From a virus, in the IMG/VR virus record IMGVR_UViG_3300028394_000037: a DNA stretch of 64,000 nt. One strand, given 5' to 3'. Positions 6,206-63,916 of this stretch are shown piece after piece (position 1 is the first letter of the stretch; every line of letters begins with the position of its first letter). The notes under the pieces were generated by a model. That model was not told where the DNA came from. It did not search any database and saw only the letters and a list, made by a program, of their open reading frames with translations. Position numbers and translations under genes: made by a program.

Positions 6206-6444
6206 TAGACCAAATTTTGTTCTTGTAGATATCTTACGGTATCTGAACAACCACCAAGATGCTGATTATCATTCAAAACAACCTGAGGAAACGTAGAACC
6301 TTGTCCAAACTGAGCATAAAACCCGTCACGCTCAAAGTGTTCTCCGAGATTATAAACAATATGTTCAAGATTTGCTAATTGTAGCACCTGTTTGATTTTA
6401 CTGCAATATGGGCAGCCATCTTTTGAATAAACTGTGAATTTCAT
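6205..6444 (-). CDS. nrdC: Glutaredoxin
   Basis: CPYC active site, TFPQV, GGCSD. Confidence 0.93.
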   Translation of the reverse strand: MKFTVYSKDGCPYCSKIKQVLQLANLEHIVYNLGEHFERDGFYAQFGQGSTFPQVVLNDNQHLGGCSDTVRYLQEQNLV

Positions 6445-6536
6445 ATAATTAAAATTATTGGTATAAGTAAAGTTAAAATTCCTATCACAAATCCCCCTAC
6501 TTGATAAAATAGGGGGTCTATACTGTCAGGATCCAT
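6441..6536 (-). CDS. Putative 31-aa single-TM peptide
   Basis: MDPDSIDPLFYQVGGFVIGILTLLIPIILII; ATGA overlap with glutaredoxin start; TATAAATA at 6564-6557 upstream. Confidence 0.45.
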   Translation of the reverse strand: MDPDSIDPLFYQVGGFVIGILTLLIPIILII

Positions 6537-6568
6537 AAATTTCTGTTATTGAATTTTATTTATAGGTT

Positions 6569-6688
6569 CTAACGAATCACTATAATTGAATTATGTTTTT
6601 CTGGCGTATTCGCACACATTTGTGCAAGCGAAACTCCAATACACATAAAGATAATAAAACTAATGGGAAGAGAAATCCATTCTTTCAT
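6569..6688 (-). CDS. Putative 39-aa single-TM peptide
   Basis: MKEWISLPISFIIFMCIGVSLAQM...; ATGA overlap with upstream stop. Confidence 0.4.
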   Translation of the reverse strand: MKEWISLPISFIIFMCIGVSLAQMCANTPEKHNSIIVIR

Positions 6689-6939
6689 TGAGTACAATCC
6701 CCAGTACGAGTTCTCCAGGAAATCAAAAATAAATCAATTACATTTTCTCTACAAGATTTTTTGGAAGAACCTTGCTCACCAGCCATAATGACAGTTGGAG
6801 GAACGACTATAGGAGAACCGCCGCCACCAGGAGAGTAGAATGATGGGGGATTATATTGAGAGGTTTGATACTGAGCATTAGCAATGGTTGGAGTAAAAAG
6901 AACCAACGCACTCACGACAAAAAAAGAACGCGAAATCAT
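6685..6939 (-). CDS. Hypothetical secreted protein
   Basis: Signal-peptide-like N-terminus (..ANA-Q); sigma70 promoter upstream. Confidence 0.6.
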   Translation of the reverse strand: MISRSFFVVSALVLFTPTIANAQYQTSQYNPPSFYSPGGGGSPIVVPPTVIMAGEQGSSKKSCRENVIDLFLISWRTRTGDCTQ

Positions 6940-6963
6940 GATAAAGTCTAGTTGGACAAACTC

Positions 6964-6992
6964 ATCCTATCACGAATACCTTAGTATGTCAA
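6964..6992 (-). promoter_or_regulatory. Sigma70-type promoter
   Basis: TTGACA-17-TAGGAT. Confidence 0.7.
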
Positions 6993-7010
6993 CCAAGAAT
7001 CATAAAAAAT

Positions 7011-7394
7011 TCAAGATGCATTATTTCTTCTTGGTCTATACTTATATAAATTTTCATTAGTTTTAGGTTTCATCCAATTCAGTATAGCAGTCATTCGCTC
7101 TTCTGAAAAAAAGTATTGATTATAATACCAAGTTTCCCAATCAGTATGCGCCTTAGAGCGATTACATTCTTCACAGCAACATAATACATTTGTAAGAAAA
7201 TCACTACCACCTTTACATTGTGGAACTATATGGTCAATTGTAAGTTTGTTTGTGCATCCACAATAAGCACATTTATTATTCCATTTTTCTCGAATTGACT
7301 TTCTCCACATTCGTTTTGCTTCTGATGATGAACTTGTATGTAACTGATACAAATAATCTGAAGAAGAATTGTAGAGTTCCATGTAGGAAAGCAT
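7011..7394 (-). CDS. Free-standing HNH endonuclease
   Basis: CAYCG...LTIDHIVP..KGG....N...CCEECNRSK. Confidence 0.9.
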   Translation of the reverse strand: MLSYMELYNSSSDYLYQLHTSSSSEAKRMWRKSIREKWNNKCAYCGCTNKLTIDHIVPQCKGGSDFLTNVLCCCEECNRSKAHTDWETWYYNQYFFSEERMTAILNWMKPKTNENLYKYRPRRNNAS

Positions 7395-7414
7395 CTATGA
7401 GTATTTATTTGTAT

Positions 7415-7443
7415 AAAAAAACTACCCCGAGTGGGGGTAGTTA
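7415..7443 (-). terminator. Intrinsic terminator after psbA
   Basis: AACTACCCCC/GGGGGTAGTT inverted repeat followed by a T-run on the minus strand. Confidence 0.8.
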
Positions 7444-7464
7444 AACTCATGTTATGAGTAGTTA

Positions 7465-8544
7465 TTAACCGATAGAAGGTGCAGTAAGAGCAACTTGAGT
7501 TGTCTCAGCAGCAGCAAGATCCAAGGGGAAATTGTGTGCGTTCCTTTCGTGCATAACTTCCATTCCAAGTCCTGCTTTGTTAAGAATATCAGCCCAAGTA
7601 GGAATTACTCGGTTTTGACTATCAAGCAGGGACTGATTGAAGTTGAAACCATTCAGGTTGAACGCCATAGTAGATACACCAAGAGCGGTAAACCAAATAC
7701 CCACGACGGGCCAAGCAGCAAGGAAGAAATGCAGACTACGAGAATTGTTAAACGAAGCATATTGGAAGATGAGACGACCAAAGTACCCGTGTGCCGCAAC
7801 AATGTTGTAGGTTTCTTCTTCTTGACCGAACTTGTATCCATAGTTTTGTGATTCATTTTCAGTAGTTTCACGAACCAGTGATGAGGTTACCAAACTTCCG
7901 TGCATCGCAGAGAACAATGAACCACCGAAGACACCAGCAACTCCCATCATATGAAAAGGGTGCATCAGAATGTTATGTTCTGCTTGGAAGACAAGCATAT
8001 AATTGAATGTGCCAGAAATACCAAGAGGCATAGCATCAGAGAATGAACCTTGACCGAAAGGATACACCAGGAATACAGCAGTCGCAGCAGCAACAGGTGC
8101 CGAGTATGCAACGCAAATCCAAGGACGCATACCTAAACGGTAAGAGAGTTCCCATTCACGTCCCATATAGCAGAAGATACCAATGAGAAAGTGAAATACA
8201 ACAAGTTGAAACGGACCCCCATTGTAGAGCCATTCGTCTAAACTTGCAGCTTCCCAGATAGGATACAAGTGAAGTCCAATAGCATTAGAGGAAGGAACAA
8301 CAGCACCAGAGATGATGTTATTTCCGTACATAAGTGAACCAGATACAGGTTCACGAATGCCATCAATGTCCACAGGGGGAGCACCGATGAATGCGATGAT
8401 AAAGCAAGTGGTTGCAGCAAGCAACGTTGGAATCATCAGAACACCGAACCAACCGACATAAAGACGGTTATCGGTAGAAGTCACCCAGGAGCAGAATTCG
8501 TCCCAGGCATTAAAAGTTTTGCGTGTAGCAATTGTAGCAGTCAT
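7465..8544 (-). CDS. psbA: Photosystem II D1 protein
   Basis: Full uninterrupted D1 ([35 protein letters not shown] + C-terminal extension). Confidence 0.99.
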
Positions 8545-8812: not shown

Positions 8813-9328
8813 TCAAATTGTTTTGTATCCATAAAACACAGTTTGACCTATACCGCTATTATTAGTAATACCAAACGAAAAAGTATTAGTATTACTGACA
8901 GCGGGACTAGATGTACTTATAGATCCAGATGTGCCGATTATTTGACTTGGTATTGATGTTAATACTAATTGATTTCCAGCAATATAATACCAACCATATT
9001 GATTACCTATTACTGGAACATTTGAATTTGAAATGGAAACAGTAGCATTCCAAATACAAATACCATTTGATATATTACCTCTCATCCACATCACATAATT
9101 TGCATTTGCTGGTACAGTAAAACTATAAGTACCAATACCAGTAGATACAGTCCAACTACCTTGATTTCCACCACATATCGCCAACCCTCCCATAGTTGAT
9201 CCATCGGATAAACTTAAAGATGTAATATTAGGATCATAAAATATTTCTCCTTCATTTCCAACAAATTGGGTTGGTTGTGAATCTCCGAGTTTTTCAACAA
9301 GAATTCTATAGGTAGTGTTAGTAATCAT
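8813..9328 (-). CDS. Putative virion structural/fibre-associated protein
   Basis: S/T/G/N-rich beta protein, FVGNEGEIFYD N-terminal motif, late promoter AATAAATA at ~9357-9350. Confidence 0.55.
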   Translation of the reverse strand: MITNTTYRILVEKLGDSQPTQFVGNEGEIFYDPNITSLSLSDGSTMGGLAICGGNQGSWTVSTGIGTYSFTVPANANYVMWMRGNISNGICIWNATVSISNSNVPVIGNQYGWYYIAGNQLVLTSIPSQIIGTSGSISTSSPAVSNTNTFSFGITNNSGIGQTVFYGYKTI

Positions 9329-9462
9329 TTTTTTAGGATATTTTATTTTTATTTATTAAATCCTACATAACATTATTAATACAATAATTATTGTTGCACT
9401 ATAATTCGTGGATATTTATATTATAATACAAATTTCCTAAATATTTCAAGAACCTTCCAATA

Positions 9463-9651
9463 ATGTCTAGGGACTTCAACACTCCGATTAGAGAACCGTG
9501 GAATGGTCCTATTCATAGGATATTGAAGGCAATAGATAATCATACAGACATTTATATAAAAACCGGAGATACCTGGCATGAAGAACAAGCCAAATATCTC
9601 CGTCAATATGTTTATAATTTAAAAGACTGGATAATCAGTCAAGAAAATTAG
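9463..9651 (+). CDS. Hypothetical protein (only credible + strand gene)
   Basis: 62 aa ORF with CTAAATA late-type promoter at 9437-9443. Confidence 0.65.
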
Positions 9652-10322
9652 ATTACATTACAACATCTTTTGTAATACATCTTACGATCATCCAATCCAT
9701 TATAACCACCATTTACTCTGAGAGTAACCTGATCTACGGTTGGATTTGTATCACATAGAGAATTCATTTGATTATTCATCCACCAGAAACCAGCACTGGT
9801 AAATGGATAGCGAGTAGCAACATATGATACACCACTCATCACTTCTGGATCTTTAATATAGTTAGCAAATGCCTGATAGTTTGCTCTACCAGTCAGTTGA
9901 ATATACCCAGCACCCTTATACTTCTTACCATCACCAGATTGAGTATTACCAAGATCATCACGACCCTCATAAGCATCACCGGATGCCAGTTCCATTTTAT
10001 ATCTTCCACCACCAGACTCATGAGAAATCTGTGAAAGAAAATGACGAATACGAGAAGGAGTAGTAATATCAAAAGTCTTCAGGCACTTATTCAGTTCAAC
10101 AATTTCTGTATCTTGAATGAGTTTAGTAGTACAGCCCCAGATGAATGCAAGTTGTTCTTTTGAAACAAGTTGCATACCATAAACTGGTGGTTTTGTTCTA
10201 TAGAGTTTTGCAAACTCTTCAAGAATATCAGGTGCTACGTGCTGTTGAAGATACTCCCATGCTTTCAGTTGCTCTGGAGTATTCTTATTATACTTAATCG
10301 CATCTAAAAAGTTAATAGTCAT
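9648..10322 (-). CDS. Glycoside hydrolase family 19 endolysin
   Basis: [19 protein letters not shown]...[26 protein letters not shown]; probable start MTINF overlapping upstream stop. Confidence 0.9.
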
Positions 10323-36808: not shown

Positions 36809-37843
36809 TCAAGCAACAGTAAGTGTAGTTGTTCCAATACCAACATCAGAAGTTGTTCCTGAACCACCAATATTGCGAAGAAGAACATCACCAAACTGTG
36901 AGGTGAATGAACTAATTACACCAACAGCACTTGAACCATCAGTAATAACGCCAACAAATCCACTTGGAAGATCAATTTTCAGTTTTGTTGCATTCGTGCG
37001 AGTACTAAATGTAACTAAAAGTCCTTGAGTAATTGTTGATCCAATTGTGCTACCAGTTCCAATTTGAACAGAAGTAGTCCCAACAGCAACAACAGGAACA
37101 TTTGTAAGTTTACCTGCTACTGTAAGAGAACTTCCAATAGCAACACCTGCTACTGAATCAACAAAGATATTAGTTCCACCAATCGCAACAGTTTGTCCCG
37201 ATGTGGTTAATGTTGTTGAGATTGCAACGTTTGCAGAAAGGACTGTACTTGGTGCAGTAAATGCAAATGATACTCTGTTTGTAACTTGACCATTAAAGTT
37301 TGTAAACACATCTGGAGATCCGTGCAGAGCAGCCGTTGATGACCAGGCATATTGAGTGGATCCTGATGATGATGCAGTTGCAACGATTGCTGTGGATTCG
37401 TTTGCATTATTTGCATCAAAGGTACGAATTCTCATCGTTGCACCAGCACTTGCAAAAACAAGCTCATTGAATACAACGTGAATATACCCAGTAGTGTTGG
37501 TAGCAATACCAGTAGTTGCTCCACCACCGATGGCAATTCTTGAGGATCTATTTGGATCTTCAAAGAAGACCGCAACAGGACCAGCAGTACCGATACCAGT
37601 AGCACCAGCATCTCCAAGTGTTGAAGTACTGTTCAATCCAACAACTGGAACTAAAACTTCATCATAATAAGATGATGAAAGACCAGAATGTTCGCTAGTG
37701 CCATATCTTCTGTAAACCCATCCACGTACATCTGCAAAGCAATTCCAAGGAGTATTATTTCTATCATTCTCAGACAGATGTTTGGGAATAGCATAATTGT
37801 TTGCTGCGGTTTCAGTTGTTGTGGAAATGCCCCAGAGTGCCAT
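36809..37843 (-). CDS. Virion structural protein (MALWG-type, T/G/V/A-rich)
   Basis: MALWG N-terminus, GWV...Y.EVLV motif, beta-rich; TATAAATA at 37883-37876. Confidence 0.7.
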   Translation of the reverse strand: MALWGISTTTETAANNYAIPKHLSENDRNNTPWNCFADVRGWVYRRYGTSEHSGLSSSYYDEVLVPVVGLNSTSTLGDAGATGIGTAGPVAVFFEDPNRSSRIAIGGGATTGIATNTTGYIHVVFNELVFASAGATMRIRTFDANNANESTAIVATASSSGSTQYAWSSTAALHGSPDVFTNFNGQVTNRVSFAFTAPSTVLSANVAISTTLTTSGQTVAIGGTNIFVDSVAGVAIGSSLTVAGKLTNVPVVAVGTTSVQIGTGSTIGSTITQGLLVTFSTRTNATKLKIDLPSGFVGVITDGSSAVGVISSFTSQFGDVLLRNIGGSGTTSDVGIGTTTLTVA

Positions 37844-37899
37844 TCTTTTTACCTATAATTCGTTAATCTAAGAAGTATTTATAAAAAAATGAGACCTCG

Positions 37900-38067
37900 T
37901 TAATTAGAGGTCTCATTATTTTTTGAGAGAACTATTAAAATATTTCGTATAAACTGATATACAGTATTTGCCTTTATTTTTTTATTTTGTCCAAGATATT
38001 CAGAAAAGGAAAACAACAATCCAAGGATTACTGTTATTCCCCAATTTGCTACTAAACAACTAATCAC
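37900..38067 (-). CDS. Small membrane protein
   Basis: GTG start overlapping upstream stop; NWGITVILGLLFSFSEYLG..K.IKAN.VYQ. Confidence 0.5.
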   Translation of the reverse strand: MISCLVANWGITVILGLLFSFSEYLGQNKKIKANTVYQFIRNILIVLSKNNETSN

Positions 38068-38295: not shown

Positions 38296-39627
38296 TCAAC
38301 CACCTGTAGTTGTTCTTGTACTTCTCCTCATCTGATCAAGATAATATTGAGTATGAGGTCTTGCTTTACTAGTATCCCCTGCTTTTAATGCCTTGGCTGC
38401 TGGACCACTATCATTTCCCATCATAGCATCAGCAGCAGCAGCAGAGTACTCTCTAGACATTCCTCCCGTTTGCCCTCTGTGCTTAGGAGATCCAGCTTCT
38501 GCTGCTTGCGCTTCAAGTCTTTTTCTTAGATCAGTACTAGAAGGTGGTTTTTCCCCTTTTTTGTGAGTAAATCTTGCCCTATTTAAAGTGTCTCCAGTTT
38601 TAATACTACCAAGACCCTTTCCACCACTCATTTGATTGATAGCACCTTTGCTAATTGGTCTCCATCCTTCAATAATAGATTCTAACCAAGCATCACTCAT
38701 ATGCTCTACAATATTTTCTGCTGAATCAAAATTTTCAGCAAAACAATTATCAACCAAAGTTTCAATTACATAATCATAAATGTTTTCAGTTTCTTCCCTC
38801 ATTGCTTGCTTTCTTTTCCAAGCATAATAAATTTTTTCACCTTTTTCTGCTCCATACTCTTTCATCATTGCCTTTTTTGCTGAAGAAGTTTTCTTTCCAA
38901 GTGCTTCTTCCTTTCTTCTTTCCACAGAAGTCATATGTCTTTCATCAAGTTCATATTCTTCAGTATTAAGTGGAAGTTTTCCTTGCTTTAATGCATTGAT
39001 TTTAAATTGCTGTTGCTTTCTTACAAGATTTATTAATTCTTGTGGAGTTGGTTCTTGTTGAGTTGGTTCTTGTTGAGTTGGTTTTTTTGATTGGGAATCA
39101 ATTTCTTCCTTTCTTAAACTTTTAAGTATTTCATCAGGAGATTTTGTAATAGTATCAGATTTTTCACGGGGAATTTGTTTTCTTTTTGCTTGCAATTTCA
39201 AAAGTTTCTGTCTTCTTCTTCTGAGTTTTTCTTCTCTTTCATAATCTGTTTCTTCACCAATTTCAACCATTTCAATCAATTCACCACCCAATTCAGAGGC
39301 AATCTGAATCATCTCAGTATTCATCGTTGGATTGATTTCAACTATATTATTTACCTCTTTTTCTTTAATTTGTTTTTTATTTTGCTCATTATCAACTAAA
39401 TCAGCAATTTCAAATAAATCATCTCTCCAATTTGATAATGATTCTTTACGAGTTTTAATTACAGAACCTATTTTTCTACGACGATTTAAAAGATACTTAT
39501 CGGTCTTTGTATTTTTTTTACGATCATTATCAATGTCAGAATCTTCTTGTCCTACTGGATCAAGTTTTTCAGATACAATTTTTCCAAAATAAACCTTTGA
39601 AATATCGTTAAGAATATTATTAGACAT
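38296..39627 (-). CDS. Charged low-complexity protein, putative internal head protein
   Basis: Late promoter TATAAATA at 39668-39661; contains a diverged copy of the YD....L.D..FAE...AE.I..MS..W..SI module. Confidence 0.65.
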   Translation of the reverse strand: MSNNILNDISKVYFGKIVSEKLDPVGQEDSDIDNDRKKNTKTDKYLLNRRRKIGSVIKTRKESLSNWRDDLFEIADLVDNEQNKKQIKEKEVNNIVEINPTMNTEMIQIASELGGELIEMVEIGEETDYEREEKLRRRRQKLLKLQAKRKQIPREKSDTITKSPDEILKSLRKEEIDSQSKKPTQQEPTQQEPTPQELINLVRKQQQFKINALKQGKLPLNTEEYELDERHMTSVERRKEEALGKKTSSAKKAMMKEYGAEKGEKIYYAWKRKQAMREETENIYDYVIETLVDNCFAENFDSAENIVEHMSDAWLESIIEGWRPISKGAINQMSGGKGLGSIKTGDTLNRARFTHKKGEKPPSSTDLRKRLEAQAAEAGSPKHRGQTGGMSREYSAAAADAMMGNDSGPAAKALKAGDTSKARPHTQYYLDQMRRSTRTTTGG

Positions 39628-40915
39628 TAGAATAAATGCTTTTTTTTATTTTTCTATACTTATTTATAAATTCTTTGATAGCATAATATTTTGCACCAGA
39701 TTGTAAATTTTCTTTTCCAGTTTTAATTGCTCCTGGAGTTTGTTTTGCTGCGTATTTAGCTGCCCCAAGAGTTCCCGTTAAAGTATTTGGTTTACCAGGC
39801 TCTCTATACATACGGTTCATATTTTTTTCAGTATATTCATTCAAATCTTTAATCCAAGACTTAAACATAATATCATCTTCGGTAACACAAATTAAATAAT
39901 TAGTTCCTCTACGAATTACTTTTCCAGTCAATCCAGTATTCATATTTTCTACAATATCACCAATTTTAAAAATTTTATTTTGAACATAATTTTCTCTCAA
40001 ATTTTCATTATCCAATTTTGGAGCAATTTGCCACAAATTAAAATTTTCTTTTATTGAAATTTCCATTCCTTTACGAACATCATTAAATAATTTTTTCGTT
40101 TCTTTATCATCAAGTTTTTTAGGAACTCCTCTTCGGAAAGTTTCAAAATCATTTTCTGCTGCTGCCTTTCTCATTTTAGATGCCGACATTCCTGATGCAT
40201 TTTTATCAGAATCTGCTGTTCCTGCTGCAACTACATTGATTTGTGAAAAATTATATTCAGAACCATTATACTTATTTGCAAGATTTTTAATCTCTGCTTG
40301 ACGATCTGAACCAACAACAATATTTACATTTCCATACCCATCCTCAGAAGTTGCCCTCAATACATCAAAGATATTTTGCATATCCGGATTATTAATTATA
40401 TTTTCACCAAATTTAGGAAACATTTTTCTCATATATGAGATTTTTGTATTGGGATCCAATGGATTCTTTTTTGGATCTTGAATCCTAGATGGATAAATTT
40501 TCAATTCTCCACCAATAGAAATACGATCTGCAGTCTTAAAAAGTTTTTCGTGTCCTATTGTCGGTGGATTAAATCTTCCAAAAATAATTGTAGAGAATTC
40601 ATCATTTTGTTGTTGTTCTAGAGATTGCTGTTGTTGCTGTGGCAATTCAGATTGTATTTGTTGTGTTGGTAAATTAACTTGAGTTCCTGCGACTTGTTGA
40701 TTTGCTTTTGTTTTTGGACCATCTGGAATATCTCTTTTACCTACTCTTTCACCACGATTAAAAAATTCAAGTTCACCCCCAACAGTTTTAGCAACAAATT
40801 CTCCACGAGAATCATACCAATCCCCGTGCCCATCACCTTGCAATCCAAGTTTTTTGGCTTGTTCTGATGCTTTAGTTTTCTTTGCTTCTATTAAGAACTG
40901 AGAAAATCTCTTCAT
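39620..40915 (-). CDS. Cytidylyltransferase-like (HxGH) nucleotidyltransferase with CTS-like leader
   Basis: FGRFNPPTIGHEKL, VVGSDR, GMSASKMR; N-terminal MKRFSQFLIEA. Confidence 0.85.
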   Translation of the reverse strand: MKRFSQFLIEAKKTKASEQAKKLGLQGDGHGDWYDSRGEFVAKTVGGELEFFNRGERVGKRDIPDGPKTKANQQVAGTQVNLPTQQIQSELPQQQQQSLEQQQNDEFSTIIFGRFNPPTIGHEKLFKTADRISIGGELKIYPSRIQDPKKNPLDPNTKISYMRKMFPKFGENIINNPDMQNIFDVLRATSEDGYGNVNIVVGSDRQAEIKNLANKYNGSEYNFSQINVVAAGTADSDKNASGMSASKMRKAAAENDFETFRRGVPKKLDDKETKKLFNDVRKGMEISIKENFNLWQIAPKLDNENLRENYVQNKIFKIGDIVENMNTGLTGKVIRRGTNYLICVTEDDIMFKSWIKDLNEYTEKNMNRMYREPGKPNTLTGTLGAAKYAAKQTPGAIKTGKENLQSGAKYYAIKEFINKYRKIKKSIYSNV

Positions 40916-40939
40916 ACTATATTATTTTTTAAATATTTA

Positions 40940-42418
40940 TCAATATAGTTTTAAATGAAATGATGCACTAATCTTATTTGGTGCAATTTGGTTTGCCATA
41001 AGAATAGATCTTGCCTTATCATCTGCCTGATCTTGAGTTAAATTCTTTTGTCCAATTTTTTTAGATTTATTGTATATATTTTTTCCTATTCTTTCAATAA
41101 TTTTTTCAGAATCCTTTCTATTCAAAATCCCTTTACTTACAATTCCAGACCATAAATCCAAAATAATTTCATCTTGTTTTTTTTGATTTCCTGAATTTTG
41201 AATTGCAAAAGCAATTTCTAATTTATTTTGTGCATTTCTATAACTTCCAATATATGATGATAGTGTTTTATTTTTAACTGATGGATCTATATTTTTTGCC
41301 AACACATCCATATACTTTTCTGAATTTTTCTTTTTATCATCATAACTTTTACCAATCATTTCACCATTACTAACAATATCAGGTGATAATGATTTGTTAA
41401 ATACTTGACCACGAATAGATTGCATCTTTCTAATAGCACCAGAATTATACAAAATAATATTTGCACCACTCATACCCATTGATCCCCCAGCGGCAGTCTT
41501 AAATTGTGCTTCTTTTTCAACTTTAAGAGATGAACTAGCATTATTATATCTAATACTATCAGTTTCTCTCTTATAACTAATTTTTCCATTTTTTTCCAAT
41601 GTTAGTTGATCTACTTCAACAACATATTTGAGAGTTTCATCAACTTTATAATATGTTGATTCATTTTTTATAGAATTAGTTCTAGATTTAACTGATGGAG
41701 GATTTGGTAGAGGTATTTCTTTTGATGGAAAATTTACAAATCCAATTCGTGAAGAATATACACCTTTAGTTGATGTCGCTTTCTTAAGAGAAATTGGTGC
41801 TAATTTTTTTTGTTCATATAATTTATAAATTAATCTATTCAAACCTACAATATCATCTATAGCATATTTTTTTTGAACATCATTTGGCATATTTTGAAAT
41901 GCATTTCCCATAACAACAGATAATTTGATATATTCTTTTATTTTATCTACTGCAGACTGATCAAAGAACCAAACATCAGCAGGATTCCATCTATCAGATT
42001 TTACATTAATTTTAAATGTACCCATATACACTTTATTTAAAAAAATACCAATATTACTAATTTTATAAAAGTAATCTTGTCTACATATTTCTAATTTTTT
42101 AGTAAATGAAACTTTTGGATTTTTTAAAAAATTTTCATTTTGTGATTTTAATGCTCCGTGCCAATCATCAGTTACAAAAAATGTTTTAGCATTACCCAAT
42201 TTCCTATTAACTGTAATAACATCCGATTTTAAATTTGAAAATTCATCTAATATTCCAAGTTTTTCAAGAGATCCAGTCAATTTATCTTTACCAGAAAAGG
42301 CATCAATCCAAAAATCTGGAGTTACTTCAATACCTCTTAATGTAAAATTTTGAGATTTTTTTTGAATGACATAATATACAGTCCACATTGTCTCTAAAAC
42401 AGTTGCAGTTGCAGCCAT
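40940..42418 (-). CDS. Large basic protein, putative PD-(D/E)XK-like nuclease
   Basis: WNPADVW...PISLKK motif; very AT-rich; CTAAATA upstream of MAATAT start. Confidence 0.5.
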   Translation of the reverse strand: MAATATVLETMWTVYYVIQKKSQNFTLRGIEVTPDFWIDAFSGKDKLTGSLEKLGILDEFSNLKSDVITVNRKLGNAKTFFVTDDWHGALKSQNENFLKNPKVSFTKKLEICRQDYFYKISNIGIFLNKVYMGTFKINVKSDRWNPADVWFFDQSAVDKIKEYIKLSVVMGNAFQNMPNDVQKKYAIDDIVGLNRLIYKLYEQKKLAPISLKKATSTKGVYSSRIGFVNFPSKEIPLPNPPSVKSRTNSIKNESTYYKVDETLKYVVEVDQLTLEKNGKISYKRETDSIRYNNASSSLKVEKEAQFKTAAGGSMGMSGANIILYNSGAIRKMQSIRGQVFNKSLSPDIVSNGEMIGKSYDDKKKNSEKYMDVLAKNIDPSVKNKTLSSYIGSYRNAQNKLEIAFAIQNSGNQKKQDEIILDLWSGIVSKGILNRKDSEKIIERIGKNIYNKSKKIGQKNLTQDQADDKARSILMANQIAPNKISASFHLKLY

Positions 42419-42444
42419 ATTCTTTGCATCTTTCTTATATTTAG

Positions 42445-42478
42445 AAAAAAAAAGACCCCCCTTGTGAGGGGGGTCTCT
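42445..42478 (-). terminator. Intrinsic terminator
   Basis: AGACCCCCC/GGGGGGTCT hairpin + T-run. Confidence 0.8.
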
Positions 42479-42499
42479 GTACAAATTTGTAAATAGTTT

Positions 42500-43066
42500 T
42501 CAACCTAGAATAGAATTTCTCCAATTTTCACTCATATTCACCATAATTCTTTCTGCTGCTTCTACAGTTTCAGCATATCCTTCATCTAAAAGATGTGAAA
42601 GAATGAGGTCATAGAGGTCATAAGAGTTGTTTAGATTTTTTCTATTATTATAAACTGCTTTTACCGCATTAAATGAAACTCTATCCTTTTTCTTTTCATC
42701 ATCAGAGAGATTGGAATATGGAGTATTAGCAAGTACTGATCTTCTTTCTTTTTGTTCTGGAGTTTGATCGGCACTTGTTTTTGCTGTTCTTGCCCATCCT
42801 TGGTGAACTGCATCGGAACCTGCTTCGGTTGAAGTTCCACTACCACTTCTTTCACCTCTTCTGAGAGCACGAAGAGCAGCAGCAGCAGAAGAACGATTTG
42901 CTGCTCTACCAAAAGAATGTTTATCTCCAGTTGCTCTACCATATCCATATCTAGAATCTAATGCAGCATCAGATGCTTTTTCATAAGGACTATCTTCCTT
43001 TTCCATAATATTATTATAAACATCTAAATATGCTTCTTGAAGATTGCGTAATTCTTGTGAGTTCAT
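42500..43066 (-). CDS. Modular protein: leader + RyR-repeat-like domain + conserved C-terminal module
   Basis: AVHQGWA...PYSNLSDDEKKKDR; C-terminal DLYDLILSHLLDEGYAETVEAAERIMVNMSENWR; TATAAATA at 43094-43087. Confidence 0.7.
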   Translation of the reverse strand: MNSQELRNLQEAYLDVYNNIMEKEDSPYEKASDAALDSRYGYGRATGDKHSFGRAANRSSAAAALRALRRGERSGSGTSTEAGSDAVHQGWARTAKTSADQTPEQKERRSVLANTPYSNLSDDEKKKDRVSFNAVKAVYNNRKNLNNSYDLYDLILSHLLDEGYAETVEAAERIMVNMSENWRNSILG

Positions 43067-43659
43067 CTGTATGATTACTTTTTAGATATTTATAAAAAAA
43101 GACCCCTTGGAGAAGTCTTGGAAAAGTTTGGAAAGTGGTTTTACTAATAAGTTGACTATGGTTTTGAAAGAATTGGATCAACTTTAACATTTGAACCTGT
43201 TCTGTCATTTCTTCTTGCCGCTGCCTGATGGGCGTTACGTCTTTGAAAAAATTCTTTTGTAGGCGCTCCAGTATCTATGTCTCGTCTATCTCTTGCTCTT
43301 AATAATCCTGCTACTTTTTTATCAGAAATTTCATTAAGTTTTGAAAGAATTGGATCAACTTTAACATTTGAACCTGTTCTGTCATTTCTTCTTGCCGCTG
43401 CCTGATGGGCGTTACGTCTTTGAAAAAATTCTTTTGTAGGCGCTCCAGTATCTATGTCTCGTCTATCTCTTGCTCTTAATAATCCTGCTACTTTTTTATC
43501 AGAAATTTCATTAAGTTGCTCAAACTCTTCAAAAATACTTTCTCTCCAATCTTCGGACATATTCACCATAATTCTTTCTGCTGCTTCTACAGTTTCAGCA
43601 TATCCTTCATCTAAAAGATGTGAGAGGATGATGTCATAGAGGTCATAAGAGTTGTTTAG
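42533..43659. repeat. 102-bp dispersed direct repeat (42533-42634 and 43558-43659)
   Basis: catattcaccataattctttctgctgc...gagttgtttag with 3 mismatches; encodes the shared module. Confidence 0.92.
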
Positions 43660-44028
43660 TGCTCTTGTTATTCTAGTAACATTTGATTGAGTTCTGTCTC
43701 TATTATCCCCAATACCATAAGGAATATTGCTCATTATTCTACCATATCCACCTTTCTTAGGTTTTGGGACAGTAGTTCCTGGGTTTGCAATTTTATCATC
43801 TGGTTTTTCGAACTTCTTTGGTCCACCATATCCAGTTCCGTCTCCCTTTTCACCTGAAAGTGGTTTTGATGGAGGTAAAGGAGGAAGTTTTCTGGCTACA
43901 TAAGGTTCTACCCCAGGTGCTCTTGCTTCACCAAAAATCAATCCATTTTCTTCCATTGCATCACGAAGTTCTTCATCATATACTGCCTGATATGCAAGTA
44001 AAGACTCTACTAGAATTCTTGAATCCAT
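43156..44028 (-). CDS. Modular protein with shared module and duplicated C-terminal 59-aa unit
   Basis: Same LLDEGYAETVEAAERIMVNMSE module; TATAAATA at 44063-44056. Confidence 0.7.
   Translation of the reverse strand: MDSRILVESLLAYQAVYDEELRDAMEENGLIFGEARAPGVEPYVARKLPPLPPSKPLSGEKGDGTGYGGPKKFEKPDDKIANPGTTVPKPKKGGYGRIMSNIPYGIGDNRDRTQSNVTRITRALNNSYDLYDIILSHLLDEGYAETVEAAERIMVNMSEDWRESIFEEFEQLNEISDKKVAGLLRARDRRDIDTGAPTKEFFQRRNAHQAAARRNDRTGSNVKVDPILSKLNEISDKKVAGLLRARDRRDIDTGAPTKEFFQRRNAHQAAARRNDRTGSNVKVDPILSKP
43161..43517. repeat. 177-bp tandem duplication with no differences seen
   Basis: LNEISDKKVAGLL...KVDPILSK encoded twice; copies start at 43161 and 43338. Confidence 0.93.
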
Positions 44029-44103
44029 TTTACCTAGAATAGTATACTCTAAGTTTATTTATAAATAAAATAATTTTTCCATTATCTGGAAAAATATATA
44101 AAA

Positions 44104-58981: not shown

Positions 58982-59476
58982 TCAATATCTAAATTTAGAA
59001 TAAACAGCATCTTTAATACTATTATAATCTGAATAATTTTCGCCATCAATAAGATTATTATCTACAAATACATTATCAAATCCAGTCTTTTCAAGAATCT
59101 TATTCTTAATTTCCAATTGTTTTTTTTCTTTTTGAATTCTTCTTAAAAAAGCATAGTAAACAATTTGAGTAAAATAAGCAAATGGATTTGTACGTTCTAC
59201 ATCAAATCTGTCAATATATTGTACACAATTTTCTATACCATCACAAATCATATCATCCTTAAACATATAATTTACAAAATTTGGTTTAAAGGATAAATGT
59301 GTAGCAATCTTTAAAAAACATTCACCAAGATAGTTTGTAATTCTTGGTTTTGGATTGTTGCCAGATTCTGCATTTTCAACTTCTTTTTTGTACTTAATAA
59401 GTGCATCCAAAAAATCTTTATTATTAACATAATGCTCTGACCTCTTTCTTTTGGTCATAACTGTTGTTGTAATCAT
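58982..59476 (-). CDS. gp55: Late sigma factor gp55
   Basis: HYVNNK.F, DMICDGIENC, NPFAYFTQI.YYAFLRRI. Confidence 0.96.
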   Translation of the reverse strand: MITTTVMTKRKRSEHYVNNKDFLDALIKYKKEVENAESGNNPKPRITNYLGECFLKIATHLSFKPNFVNYMFKDDMICDGIENCVQYIDRFDVERTNPFAYFTQIVYYAFLRRIQKEKKQLEIKNKILEKTGFDNVFVDNNLIDGENYSDYNSIKDAVYSKFRY

Positions 59477-62485: not shown

Positions 62486-63916
62486 TTACATGAGATTTTT
62501 TACAGAAACACGTCTGTAGTAACGGTTTGCATTAACTTGCAATCTACCTTGACCTTGAGTGGTTCCTTCTGCAAATGGGTTAGCAACAATACCGTAACGA
62601 GTCTTGAAGCCAATCTTTGGTTGGAAGGAGTTCTCACCAACGGCACGAACCATTTGGAGAGGAACATAAGGACAATAGAAGAGTCCAGCATCATAAGGGG
62701 ATGTACCCTTATAACCGACAACATAGTACTGATTAGTACCTTGTGCAAGACCAATGTTGTTAGCAGCGAGGTTAGCAGAATATGGGTCAATATATACGCG
62801 GAATTTGCCCATCAATGTACCAGCAAAAGTATTGCCAGTGTCATCAACGTTAAGGTTAGCGTTGAGTGCAGGGGTGTAGTCAAGAACACCAGCCATGGTA
62901 AGTGCTGAAGCAACGTCAGCAGAACACATGATGATGTTGCCCTTTCCACGACGAGTTCTTTGTGCGATTGCGTTAGCATCACGCTCAATTTGGAACAAGA
63001 GACCCTTGAACTTCTCAACTGACCAACGACCGTTGGAATCAACGTCAAGGTCAAATACACCAGCAGTAGCGGTGTTTTGAACAGCACCTTGCTCAGCAAC
63101 CTTGTAGATGGTACGAATAACTTCGCGGTTGATTTCAGCAAGAATCTCAGTTGAGAGAATGTTTGCCAATTCCGCTTCAGCATTCAGACCATGAATTGCC
63201 TTAAGGTCTTGTGCGAGTTCTAATGAGTACTCAGCCTTGAGTGCTCTAGACTTTGCAGTAACAGTGACCTTCTCAATTGAGAATGCCATCTGGTTGAACT
63301 GGTCACCACCAGCGCCATCTCCAAGTGCTTCTGCATCACCAGTCTGCATTCCGTTACCAACGTTGTATGCAGTTTGATCGCCAGCACCACCAACAGGGTT
63401 AAGAACTGATGGGTTGGTTCCAGATTGTGAAGTAGTACCAATACCAGCAGCAGTGCTACCAAATCCAACGTTATCAAACGCTGAATTTTGTCCAGAGAAT
63501 GCTGAATCTACTTCATTGTAGAATGCTTCATTACCGGATTGATTGGTGTAACGTGAACGCATTGCGAAGATGAGTCCAGTAGGACCGCTCATTGGTTGAA
63601 CACCTGCGAGGTCATAAGCGACCAAGTTAGGCATTGAACGACGAATGAGTGAGATTAGAACTGGATCAAAACCTGCGGTAGGACCACCAGAAGCAGAACC
63701 ACCACTGAAACCACCAGTACCAGTTGAGTTAGTTGGTGATTCCATGAGCATACTCATGGATCCATTATCAAAAGAAGATTGCTCTCTTAAGAATTTTTCT
63801 TGATTTTCTAGCAGGACTGCGGTTACAGCTCTACGATGGGAATCTTTAATTTGATCAAGACCCTCATAGTTGAGAAGTGGTGCCCACTTTTCCTGCAGAT
63901 GTTCTGATTGAAACAT
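62486..63916 (-). CDS. gp23: Major capsid protein gp23
   Basis: EKWAPLL, GVQPM.GPTGLIFAMR, KSRALKAEYSLELAQDLKAIHG, FQPKIGFKTRYG. Confidence 0.99.
   Translation of the reverse strand: MFQSEHLQEKWAPLLNYEGLDQIKDSHRRAVTAVLLENQEKFLREQSSFDNGSMSMLMESPTNSTGTGGFSGGSASGGPTAGFDPVLISLIRRSMPNLVAYDLAGVQPMSGPTGLIFAMRSRYTNQSGNEAFYNEVDSAFSGQNSAFDNVGFGSTAAGIGTTSQSGTNPSVLNPVGGAGDQTAYNVGNGMQTGDAEALGDGAGGDQFNQMAFSIEKVTVTAKSRALKAEYSLELAQDLKAIHGLNAEAELANILSTEILAEINREVIRTIYKVAEQGAVQNTATAGVFDLDVDSNGRWSVEKFKGLLFQIERDANAIAQRTRRGKGNIIMCSADVASALTMAGVLDYTPALNANLNVDDTGNTFAGTLMGKFRVYIDPYSANLAANNIGLAQGTNQYYVVGYKGTSPYDAGLFYCPYVPLQMVRAVGENSFQPKIGFKTRYGIVANPFAEGTTQGQGRLQVNANRYYRRVSVKNLM

Follow-up and report, generated by a model that had tools for sequence, protein, structure and literature searches.

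Late-promoted genes of an uncultured T4-like cyanomyovirus form a cassette of probable virion-carried proteins

Introduction

Which proteins might a marine T4-like phage load into its particles together with its DNA, and can they be recognized in the genome? The question is raised by a 64,000-nucleotide stretch of the IMG/VR virus record IMGVR_UViG_3300028394_000037 (hereafter the window, meaning the whole of this stretch), in which five consecutive minus-strand genes, here called A to E and transcribed in the order E, D, C, B, A, occupy positions 38296-44028 between mazG/gp41 and the primase gene. A preliminary description, made from the sequence alone, had proposed a modular system in which a leader and a shared module direct variable effectors to the prohead. 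The reading that we favor, with a probability of roughly 0.55, is that the five genes make up a conserved cassette between mazG/gp41 and primase, transcribed late and encoding non-structural proteins that travel in the virion, in which B would be targeted by a tag of T4 type and A, D and E belong to a mosaic family.

The window derives from an uncultured T4-like cyanomyovirus, and its minus strand carries nearly all of its genes. PHROG scans identify gp23, UvsY, UvsW, gp55, gp47/46, gp45, gp44/62, RegA, gp43, UvsX, gp41 and MazG upstream of the cassette, and primase gp61 and NrdA/B downstream of it. The gp41 protein is ~80% identical to those of Synechococcus phages Bellamy, S-SM2 and S-SCSM1. 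A search of phage records found no close nucleotide relative; the only match was 352 nt at 76% identity, in the cytidyltransferase of S-SRM01.

Results

Cassette proteins of related phages are virion-associated

In S-SCSM1, the interval from mazG to primase holds genes 89, 90, 91 (NMNAT), 92, 93, 95 (MALWG) and 97, all of which bear the GenBank product name 'virion protein'. Gene order relates 89 to D and E, 90 to C, 91 to B and 92 to A, and phmmer comparisons agree for three of these assignments: S-SCSM1_89 starts MDSKTFNSLSEAYAAVY, contains the module described below and matches D and E (E 5e-9); S-SCSM1_91 resembles B (E 1e-138); and S-SCSM1_92, which starts MTHLNDISKVY, resembles A (E 3e-21). 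A NATAAATA motif lies upstream of each of genes 89-92; the one for 92 is embedded in the 3'-terminal part of the gene for the enzyme, an arrangement shared with the window.

Published proteomes place the enzyme in particles. For CsCl-purified virions, the S-SCSM1 paper reports 45 proteins detected by mass spectrometry, of which 13 have no known function, and names ORF91. The cytidylyltransferase/NMNAT was detected in virions of S-CREM2, S-SZBM1 and S-SCSM1, with further cases cited there; in S-SZBM1, the virion proteins also include a 457-aa neighbor of the enzyme and the prohead core protease. Through these relatives, a cassette of virion-carried proteins is well supported.

Gene B begins with a capsid-targeting-like tag

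The preliminary description had noted that the nucleotidyltransferase begins MKRFSQFLIEA; at positions 4, 7, 8 and 10, this start closely follows the capsid-targeting sequence of T4. That sequence is MKTYQEFIAE in the T4 internal protein IPIII (PMC8442874), in which residues 4 and 7 are assigned to targeting and residues 8 and 10 to processing (PMC9026906, section 2.6, in the portion available). With F4, F7, L8 and E10, B agrees with IPIII at all four functionally mapped positions. The strict pattern MK-x-[FY]-x-x-F-[LIVMF]-x-E is kept at residue 1 in 93 of 99 metagenomic B homologues, and one metagenomic homologue starts MKTYAQFLIE. Across 40 aligned homologues, conservation reaches at least 90% at each of K2, F4, F7 and E10, and residues 1-10 are better conserved than the linker that follows. 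By sequence, L8-I9-E10-A11 forms a processing-type [LI]-x-E motif; the prohead protease gene lies outside the window. A tblastn search with B residues 1-57 returned 294 phage records, all from cyanophages or marine viruses. In a six-frame scan of the window B is the sole fit to the tag pattern; A, C, D and E do not fit.

We scanned several phage genomes with the pattern M-K-x4-F-[LIVMF]-x-E back-translated to DNA. T4 gave five matches (reversed pattern as control, 0), three of which were placed, at the starts of ipII and ipIII and in ORF 61.1. S-CREM2 gave three in 174,876 bp: gp6 (SAM hydrolase), gp13 and gp154 (cytidylyltransferase), which its virion proteome lists with 19, 1 and 3 unique peptides, respectively (PMC10665884, Table 3). 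The S-CREM2 kinase gp14 has a GTG start and reads VKRFDAFLTE, and gp12 carries the motif behind a 16-residue extension; both stand likewise in the proteome table as available (PMC10665884). Non-virion genes neighboring the tagged S-CREM2 genes are without the motif. Of four matches in S-SCSM1, those placed are the NMNAT start, the start of SSCSM1_30 (106 aa) and an out-of-frame site in gene 31; the single match in S-SZBM1 is SSZBM1_191 (105 aa). The mazG-primase intervals of S-CRM01 and S-H34 contain runs of adjacent genes with tag-like starts, among them MISFDQFLSE (kinase), MKKLDQFLTE, MKLFNQFFKE (cytidylyltransferase) and MKELSKFLRE, and the S-CRM01 kinase was detected in virions according to the available text of the S-CREM2 paper (PMC10665884). 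Taken together, these patterns strongly suggest a T4-type targeting tag on B.

Two further observations concern tag-like sequences. In T4 (NC_000866, 18966-19130), ORF 61.1 encodes a 54-aa protein that starts MKTFKEFIKE and lies directly upstream of primase gene 61; the cyanophage cassette occupies the gp41-gp61 interval equivalent to this location. S-SCSM1_93 (69 aa, virion-annotated; 7808-8017 of its locus) has a tag-like C-terminus, ...KKKRTFKEFLEYIE. T4 Alt is reportedly processed at both ends.

Gene B is a predicted nucleotidyltransferase with a shared mini-domain

B matches phrog_395 'cytidyltransferase' (E 4e-101), and annotation of its family varies between cytidylyltransferase and NMNAT-like. 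In an AF2 model, residues 4-22 form an N-terminal helix and a linker (57-103) is disordered. A fold search with Foldseek relates the Rossmann-type domain to NaMN/NMN adenylyltransferases and PPAT (E 3e-5, probability 1.00), and the domain contains TIGH with an invariant H122 and the ISSTxxR-like SASKMR with an invariant R249. Pfam found no family in any of A-E at E <= 0.01, B included, and PF01467 (CTP_transf_like) is present in many B homologues; a sequence-profile search of the PDB with the B alignment gave 0 matches. Predicted fold and motifs thus identify B as an HxGH nucleotidyltransferase.

Residues 16-56 of B (LGLxGDGHGDWY...VAKTVxGxLxFF) are nearly invariant in aligned homologues. By phmmer, the beta mini-domain in this segment also stands, in one or two copies, at the N-terminal end of the kinases from S-H34 and S-CREM2, and it is present in S-CRM01 g128 and S-H34 gp182; a by-eye comparison places it also in S-CREM2 gp12, the counterpart of the latter two. 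Two mini-domain proteins are among those detected in S-CREM2 virions. This GDGHGDWY mini-domain, which the preliminary description had not noted, offers the clearest example of a single address joined to different enzymes. Among proteins of 756-2155 aa, none scored as carrying B residues 1-56, which is weak evidence; kinases of 675-821 aa with the mini-domain were identified by other routes.

Late-type signals accompany each gene

As the preliminary description had stated, five consecutive genes each have a late-promoter-like motif of their own, and terminators separate some of them. The motifs lie 18-33 nt before the starts, and the hairpins follow E and D. The pattern is that of T4-type late genes for A, B, D and E, which have -10-type motifs at this distance; C has only CTAAATA. 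A homologue of the late sigma factor gp55 is encoded in the same window (58982-59476). A sixth TATAAATA precedes the next gene, at 36809-37843, and seven of the eight occurrences of TATAAATA are on the coding strand. For NATAAATA, 12 of the 23 coding-strand occurrences are no more than 60 nt from a start, and five in a row belong to E, D, B, A and the 344-aa gene; in the replication block (44.5-62 kb), 0 of 4 are near a start. Terminator-like hairpins number 12 between 36500 and 44600, versus 2.7 +/- 1.9 in shuffled sequence.

Because the 344-aa gene has its own TATAAATA, a bidirectional terminator and a virion-annotated S-SCSM1 counterpart (S-SCSM1_95, annotated both as tail fiber and as virion protein), the late island spans 36.8 to 44.1 kb, farther than had been described. 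Gene C is listed as an open reading frame of 40940-42484 from a TTG start; the ATG at 42418 (MAATATVLE) is the likelier start, as it lies downstream of both the terminator and the promoter motif.

A, D and E belong to a mosaic family

The preliminary description had recognized a module of ~35 aa common to three genes and diverged in the 443-aa gene, and this is borne out: over 126 nt, the D and E copies are 91% identical in DNA and the A copy is 68-71% identical to them. Nucleotide conservation is found at 38674-38751, 42509-42634 and 43534-43659, and homologous recombination at the module DNA could exchange the segments on either side. All invariant module columns (L11, A17, A23, I26, M30, S31, W34, I38) are matched in A, D and E, and PHROGs 3708, 22522 and 3477 cover the family in part. 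The three 'similar helical leaders' of the preliminary description do read as quoted; their motif is a different one from the T4-type tag. We considered the leaders as diverged T4 tags and rejected this, as the spacing of hydrophobic residues differs and 0 of the best 150 family members fit the tag.

The family is large. D has 3277 metagenomic relatives of similar length; among the D homologues listed, 116 of 120 keep the leader, and the tails after the module run from 6 to 156 residues and are unrelated between proteins. A module profile built from 14 sequences (41 columns) matched 3434 clusters at E <= 0.001 and 2465 at E <= 1e-10, counting clusters at 50% identity, and many proteins have two or three copies. 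Of the best 150 module proteins, 147 begin with Met and 100 fit the leader pattern. Leader and module, the presumed handles, have an acidic composition; that of the variable segments is basic, at an isoelectric point (pI) of 9.7-11. The proposal of a leader and module joined to variable cargo holds for very many unrelated segments; within the cassette, the module is present in three of the five genes only. A search of our literature collection for the module sequence found no relevant paper.

D-type genes occur after mazG, beside gp41, and downstream of gp46 with a vWA-zincin 'peptidase' as neighbor. One 247-kb contig has them directly behind three genes that start MKTFKEFLEE, MKTYQEFISE and MKTFKEFIEE, and in S-CRM01, leader and module are on separate small genes after psbA. 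Leader-plus-module genes repeatedly adjoin a gene for a ~720-730 aa HExxH 'peptidase' after gp46 (loci L001, 675-3817, S-SRM01 gp230-231; L011, 4750-7782; L034, 4892-8432).

The tail of E contains a perfect tandem duplication that encodes two identical 59-aa basic repeats (LNEISDKKVAGLLRARDRRDIDTG...). Their 100% identity suggests either a very recent duplication or an assembly effect. A segment similar to these repeats directly follows the leader in other family members (locus L019, 7752-8486). For A, tblastn against phages gave short or weak matches only, at the module region of S-CRM01. Residues 17-38 of A (39514-39579) and S-SCSM1_92 (6243-7805 of its locus) share DPVG-x-ED-x-D-[IV]-[DN]-ND-x-K-K-N-T-K-[ST]-D-K-Y-L-L-N-R-R, a segment matched by phrog_4359 and phrog_38880; it may resemble calcium-binding loops with the pattern Dx[DN]xDG.

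Predicted self-pairing of the module and candidate protease sites at its borders

The AF2 model of D has a mean pLDDT of 69, rising to 73-92 over residues 51-140, with a confident helical domain at ~50-145 and the module modeled as helix-turn-helix-helix. Foldseek found no match of the D model in the PDB at E <= 0.001, and a protein atlas search with D gave no usable match. Prediction of a module homodimer scored 0.58 (best control, 0.01), with 100% contact agreement across three runs and a pLDDT of 90; in a benchmark, 20 of 30 proteins with structures solved as pairs scored that high, as did 1 of 23 with single-chain structures. The predicted interface coincides with the invariant alignment columns. 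These predictions support self-pairing of the module.

T4 gp21 cuts after Glu in [LI]-x-E. In 99 of 111 leader-anchored family representatives, [LI]-x-E stands at one fixed place of the leader (N-L-Q-E|A, Glu at residue 11), and a further [LI]-x-E follows within 10 residues of the leader in 89 of 111, as against 17% of 1946 background windows. Directly after the module, [ILV]-x-E occurs in 124 of 175 cases; most others have I-L-D-E or the protein end, as in D. The gp23 of the window reads M-L-M-E-S where propeptide cleavage is expected. A review of T4 mentions a gp21 cleavage logo in the portion available (PMC9026906). This distribution fits trimming at the module borders and could equally reflect helix packing.

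A separate resemblance involves gp23. The small virion proteins S-SCSM1_97 (9303-9488 of its locus) and S-CREM2 gp160 (9343-10236 of its locus) carry a G-rich segment, GGFTGSSAAEGPTAGYDPLM, which aligns, within phrog_696 'major head protein', to the positions also matched by gp23 residues 57-87 (63655-63750), just after the presumed propeptide site.

Gene C

C is linked to S-SCSM1_90 because both fall in phrog_1462 (E 1.6e-8 for C, 3.9e-66 for S-SCSM1_90); their direct BLASTP comparison is not significant (E 0.15). The two share short colinear patches, W-[NS]-P-A-D-[VI] and [IV]-S-L-K-K. Pfam at E <= 10 returned nothing meaningful for either protein, and tblastn of C against phages gave only short or weak matches, to a P-SSM3 hypothetical protein. 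A protein atlas lead to HpaII/HaeIII restriction endonucleases (0.85-0.86) was below the level at which we count matches and is not claimed; the other atlas matches were viral hypothetical clusters.

Table 1. Cassette genes, their parts and the signals around them (positions in the window)
Feature	Position	Strand	Remarks
Gene E	43156..44028	-	290 aa; leader, basic spacer, module, basic tail of two perfect 59-aa repeats
Gene D	42500..43066	-	188 aa; leader, helical domain (residues ~50-145), C-terminal module
Gene C	40940..42418	-	492 aa from ATG; pI 9.6, basic; without leader, without module; phrog_1462
Gene B	39620..40915	-	431 aa; HxGH nucleotidyltransferase (predicted)
Gene A	38296..39627	-	443 aa; NDISKVY N-terminal start, DPVGxEDxDxDND motif, diverged module, basic tail
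Next gene, MALWG family	36809..37843	-	344 aa, G/T/S-rich; own TATAAATA at 37876-37883; bidirectional terminator at 37888-37917
TATAAATA before E	44056..44063	-	27 nt ahead of E start
TATAAATA before D	43087..43094	-	20 nt ahead of D start
CTAAATA before C	42438..42444	-	19 nt ahead of C ATG; weakest of the motifs
GATAAATA before B	40934..40941	-	18 nt ahead of B start
TATAAATA before A	39661..39668	-	within 3' end of B; 33 nt ahead of A start
Terminator-like hairpin and T run, after E	43099..43119	-
Strong terminator hairpin, after D	42451..42478	-	12 pairs, 7 G-C, T run
B residues 1-10, MKRFSQFLIE	40886..40915	-	look-alike of T4-type capsid-targeting sequence, then Ala
B beta mini-domain	40757..40849	-	residues 23-53 (model: 32-53, pLDDT 84-87); LGLxGDGHGDWY...VAKTVxGxLxFF
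B Rossmann-type nucleotidyltransferase domain	40046..40597	-	residues 107-290, pLDDT ~90; TIGH, SASKMR
B small beta-barrel	39836..39955	-	residues 321-360; phrog_4808 matches residues 300-361
E leader MDSRILVESLLAYQAVY	43978..44028	-	L-V-E at residues 6-8; minority type, also in P0239, P0246
D leader MNSQELRNLQEAYLDVY	43016..43066	-	L-Q-E-A at residues 9-12
E module	43525..43647	-	40 aa, acidic, then I-F-E
D module	42503..42622	-
A module	38665..38787	-	diverged, then I-I-E
Tandem duplication, E tail	43161..43514	-	2 x 177 nt, perfect; 100% identity, repeat family D1

Discussion

The reading that we favor would work as follows for B: its 10-residue tag would dock the protein on the scaffolding core of the prohead, a gp21-type prohead protease would remove the tag after Glu10, and the trimmed enzyme would stay in the head with the DNA and pass into the cell when infection begins. 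Other blocks make up A, D and E, namely an amphipathic L-x-E-A leader, an acidic 40-aa helix-turn-helix module followed by I-x-E, and variable, mostly basic segments. Here, leader and module may be assembly handles, possibly removable by the protease, that load the basic segments into the particle. What we show is the anatomy of the genes, the conservation of their motifs, their synteny, and that relatives are annotated as or detected among virion proteins; we infer the location in the capsid interior, the cleavage, the ejection and any function in the host for the cassette proteins.

Several points weigh against this reading. The virion evidence comes from relatives only, as whole-virion proteomes, and the module is missing from S-CREM2, S-SZBM1 and S-H34. 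Since the enzyme is nevertheless found in virions of S-CREM2 and S-SZBM1, the module is not needed for that. In S-SCSM2R, ORF205 starts with the module, and the main text of the corresponding paper names 23 virion proteins with ORF205 unmentioned. D-type genes also sit between psbA and psbD and at other genome positions; the family moves about within genomes and is not bound to a single cassette. No T4-type tag is present on A, D and E, nor on any of the best 150 module proteins (0/150 fit the pattern), and the leader helix of D is floppy and of low confidence in the model. A Pfam scan of 87 of these 150, the shorter ones being left out, found no enzyme domain in the cargo; it gave four weak LisH matches on the module itself and three sub-threshold chance matches. 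The [LI]-x-E motif is short, lies in Glu-rich helices and might be conserved for folding alone. Among proteins that do fit the tag pattern, SSCSM1_30 (annotated hypothetical) and SSZBM1_191 are not annotated or listed as virion proteins in the records and tables available, so that the tag follows virion detection well for larger proteins and not for these two small ones. Finally, TATAAATA shows no excess in the window (8 occurrences vs 8.3 +/- 3.2 in shuffles): its placement is non-random though its overall frequency equals chance.

Could the proteins simply be contaminants? The authors of the proteome studies themselves warn, in the text available, that abundant late proteins may co-purify with virions. 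Extended to the whole cassette, this caution would make its products late cytoplasmic proteins, with B an auxiliary metabolic enzyme (NAD or nucleotide-sugar metabolism), the others late host-takeover or DNA-binding proteins, and the likeness of the B tag either coincidental or serving another purpose. The low peptide counts of the enzyme in the tables available (3 unique in S-CREM2, 2 in S-SZBM1) and the two tag-pattern proteins lacking virion detection or annotation are compatible with this. We nonetheless think it unlikely, since three laboratories, each with a different phage, independently found the enzyme in virions, all three S-CREM2 pattern matches are virion-detected though only 52 S-CREM2 proteins are, and residues 1-10 of B are more conserved than its linker, which is unexpected for a plain cytoplasmic enzyme. 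About as improbable, in our judgment, is that A, D and E have an assembly role in the prohead core, resembling scaffold proteins, or fill the head and condense DNA; the protease would degrade or trim them during maturation, they would not be delivered effectors, and their variability would reflect weak constraint on disordered segments and frequent recombination at the conserved module. Much of what we describe would suit such proteins: the basic, disordered composition without identified enzyme domains, [LI]-x-E at the module borders as in T4 core proteins that get cut, the predicted self-pairing, and the 91% identity of D and E module DNA, which favors recombination. Against it, S-SCSM1_89 and S-SCSM1_92 are annotated in mature virions, so at least parts persist, and the family is absent from several T4-like cyanophages and thus cannot be an essential scaffold.

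We give very little credence to the possibility that the cassette encodes external virion parts, such as fibers, whiskers or baseplate decorations. For the adjacent MALWG family, S-SCSM1 has the annotations tail fiber and virion protein, and in phage RB11-B a B-like N-terminus belongs to a product labeled 'tail fiber protein'; but B is an enzyme by prediction, with a tag of the head-targeting type, and charge and extensive disorder mark A, D and E, which have no fiber-like repeats or beta-rich folds.

The favored reading, a late cassette of virion-carried proteins, can be widened into a more speculative one, which we hold only tentatively: combinatorial head-loading in marine T4-like cyanophages with two types of address. 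One would be the ancestral T4 tag, in many cases joined to a GDGHGDWY mini-domain, on enzymes (nucleotidyltransferase, protein kinase, SAM hydrolase, large nuclease-like proteins). The other would be a leader of the class M-N-S-Q-E-L-R-N-L-Q-E|A... joined to the acidic, self-pairing module, carried by thousands of basic peptides. The module DNA would act as a recombination site through which cargo is shuffled, flanking [LI]-x-E sites would let the protease release the cargo, which would enter the host with the DNA, and module pairing might let untagged partners ride along.

The modular delivery cassette proposed in the preliminary description survives in part. The genes are late-promoted and their relatives virion-associated; module-less phages carry the enzyme in virions all the same, and D-type genes sit elsewhere too. 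Its term 'effectors' is unproven, because the cargo is without enzyme domains and consists mostly of basic low-complexity sequence. We retain targeting of such cargo by leader and module of A, D and E as a hypothesis with some supporting features.

If the tag works as in T4, it would supply a mechanism for the presence in cyanophage virions of so far unexplained enzymes (NMNAT-like transferases, kinases, SAM hydrolase) and, if true, a sequence rule that predicts packaged proteins straight from genomes and metagenomes. Proteins delivered before phage expression are prime candidates for counter-defense and host takeover in the first minute of infection of Synechococcus and Prochlorococcus. The leader-plus-module family may amount to a hypervariable arsenal of proteins for delivery, a proposal that can be tested, and the tag is a possible tool for loading foreign proteins into cyanophage heads.

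How does the cassette compare with what is known? Virion-associated NMNAT-like enzymes of cyanophages are already published. B is an orthologue of the virion NMNAT/cytidylyltransferase of S-SCSM1, S-CREM2, S-SZBM1 and S-CBWM1, and shares neighbors and promoter placement with that of S-SCSM1; the papers, in the text available, report detection only and mention no targeting tag, no shared N-terminal mini-domain and no family relationships for the neighboring virion proteins of unknown function. A search of our literature collection for 'capsid targeting sequence' in cyanophage papers found none, the sole co-mention being a T4 review with cyanophages only in its reference list. Within that collection, the tag on cyanophage proteins, the shared mini-domain and the mosaic family appear to be new.

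The T4-type internal proteins are the nearest parallel to B. As in these proteins, the N-terminus of B is a short tag that is hydrophobic at 4 and 7 and has [LI]-x-E at 8-10, followed by Ala; late-type promoters and basic mature parts are also common to both, and S-CREM2 and S-CRM01 each have several unrelated proteins with the tag (cytidylyltransferase, kinase, SAM hydrolase, small proteins). Differences are the cyanobacterial host, a cargo composed of a 431-aa nucleotidyltransferase with a beta mini-domain after the tag, the other kind of leader on A, D and E, and a cyanophage tag known from sequence alone. For the module, the closest known domain is LisH (PF08513). The first helix and turn (LILSHLLDEGYAET) are LisH-like, 4 of the 87 family members scanned score 24-29 bits against a cut-off of 21.6, and a symmetric dimer is predicted. 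We do not file the module under LisH, because the window copies fall below this cut-off (12.7 bits for the D module, at an E-value of 0.14) and because it is longer, with a conserved second helix ending MSExW; in the relatives, moreover, no single stretch passes alone. The mosaic of A, D and E recalls the hyperplastic IP locus of T-even phages, which Repoila and colleagues reportedly described in 1994 and in which variable cargo is said to lie behind a conserved short coding segment, a possible recombination site. The window differs in that its conserved segment, a module of 126 nt, lies inside the genes, and genes of this family are scattered over several genome positions.

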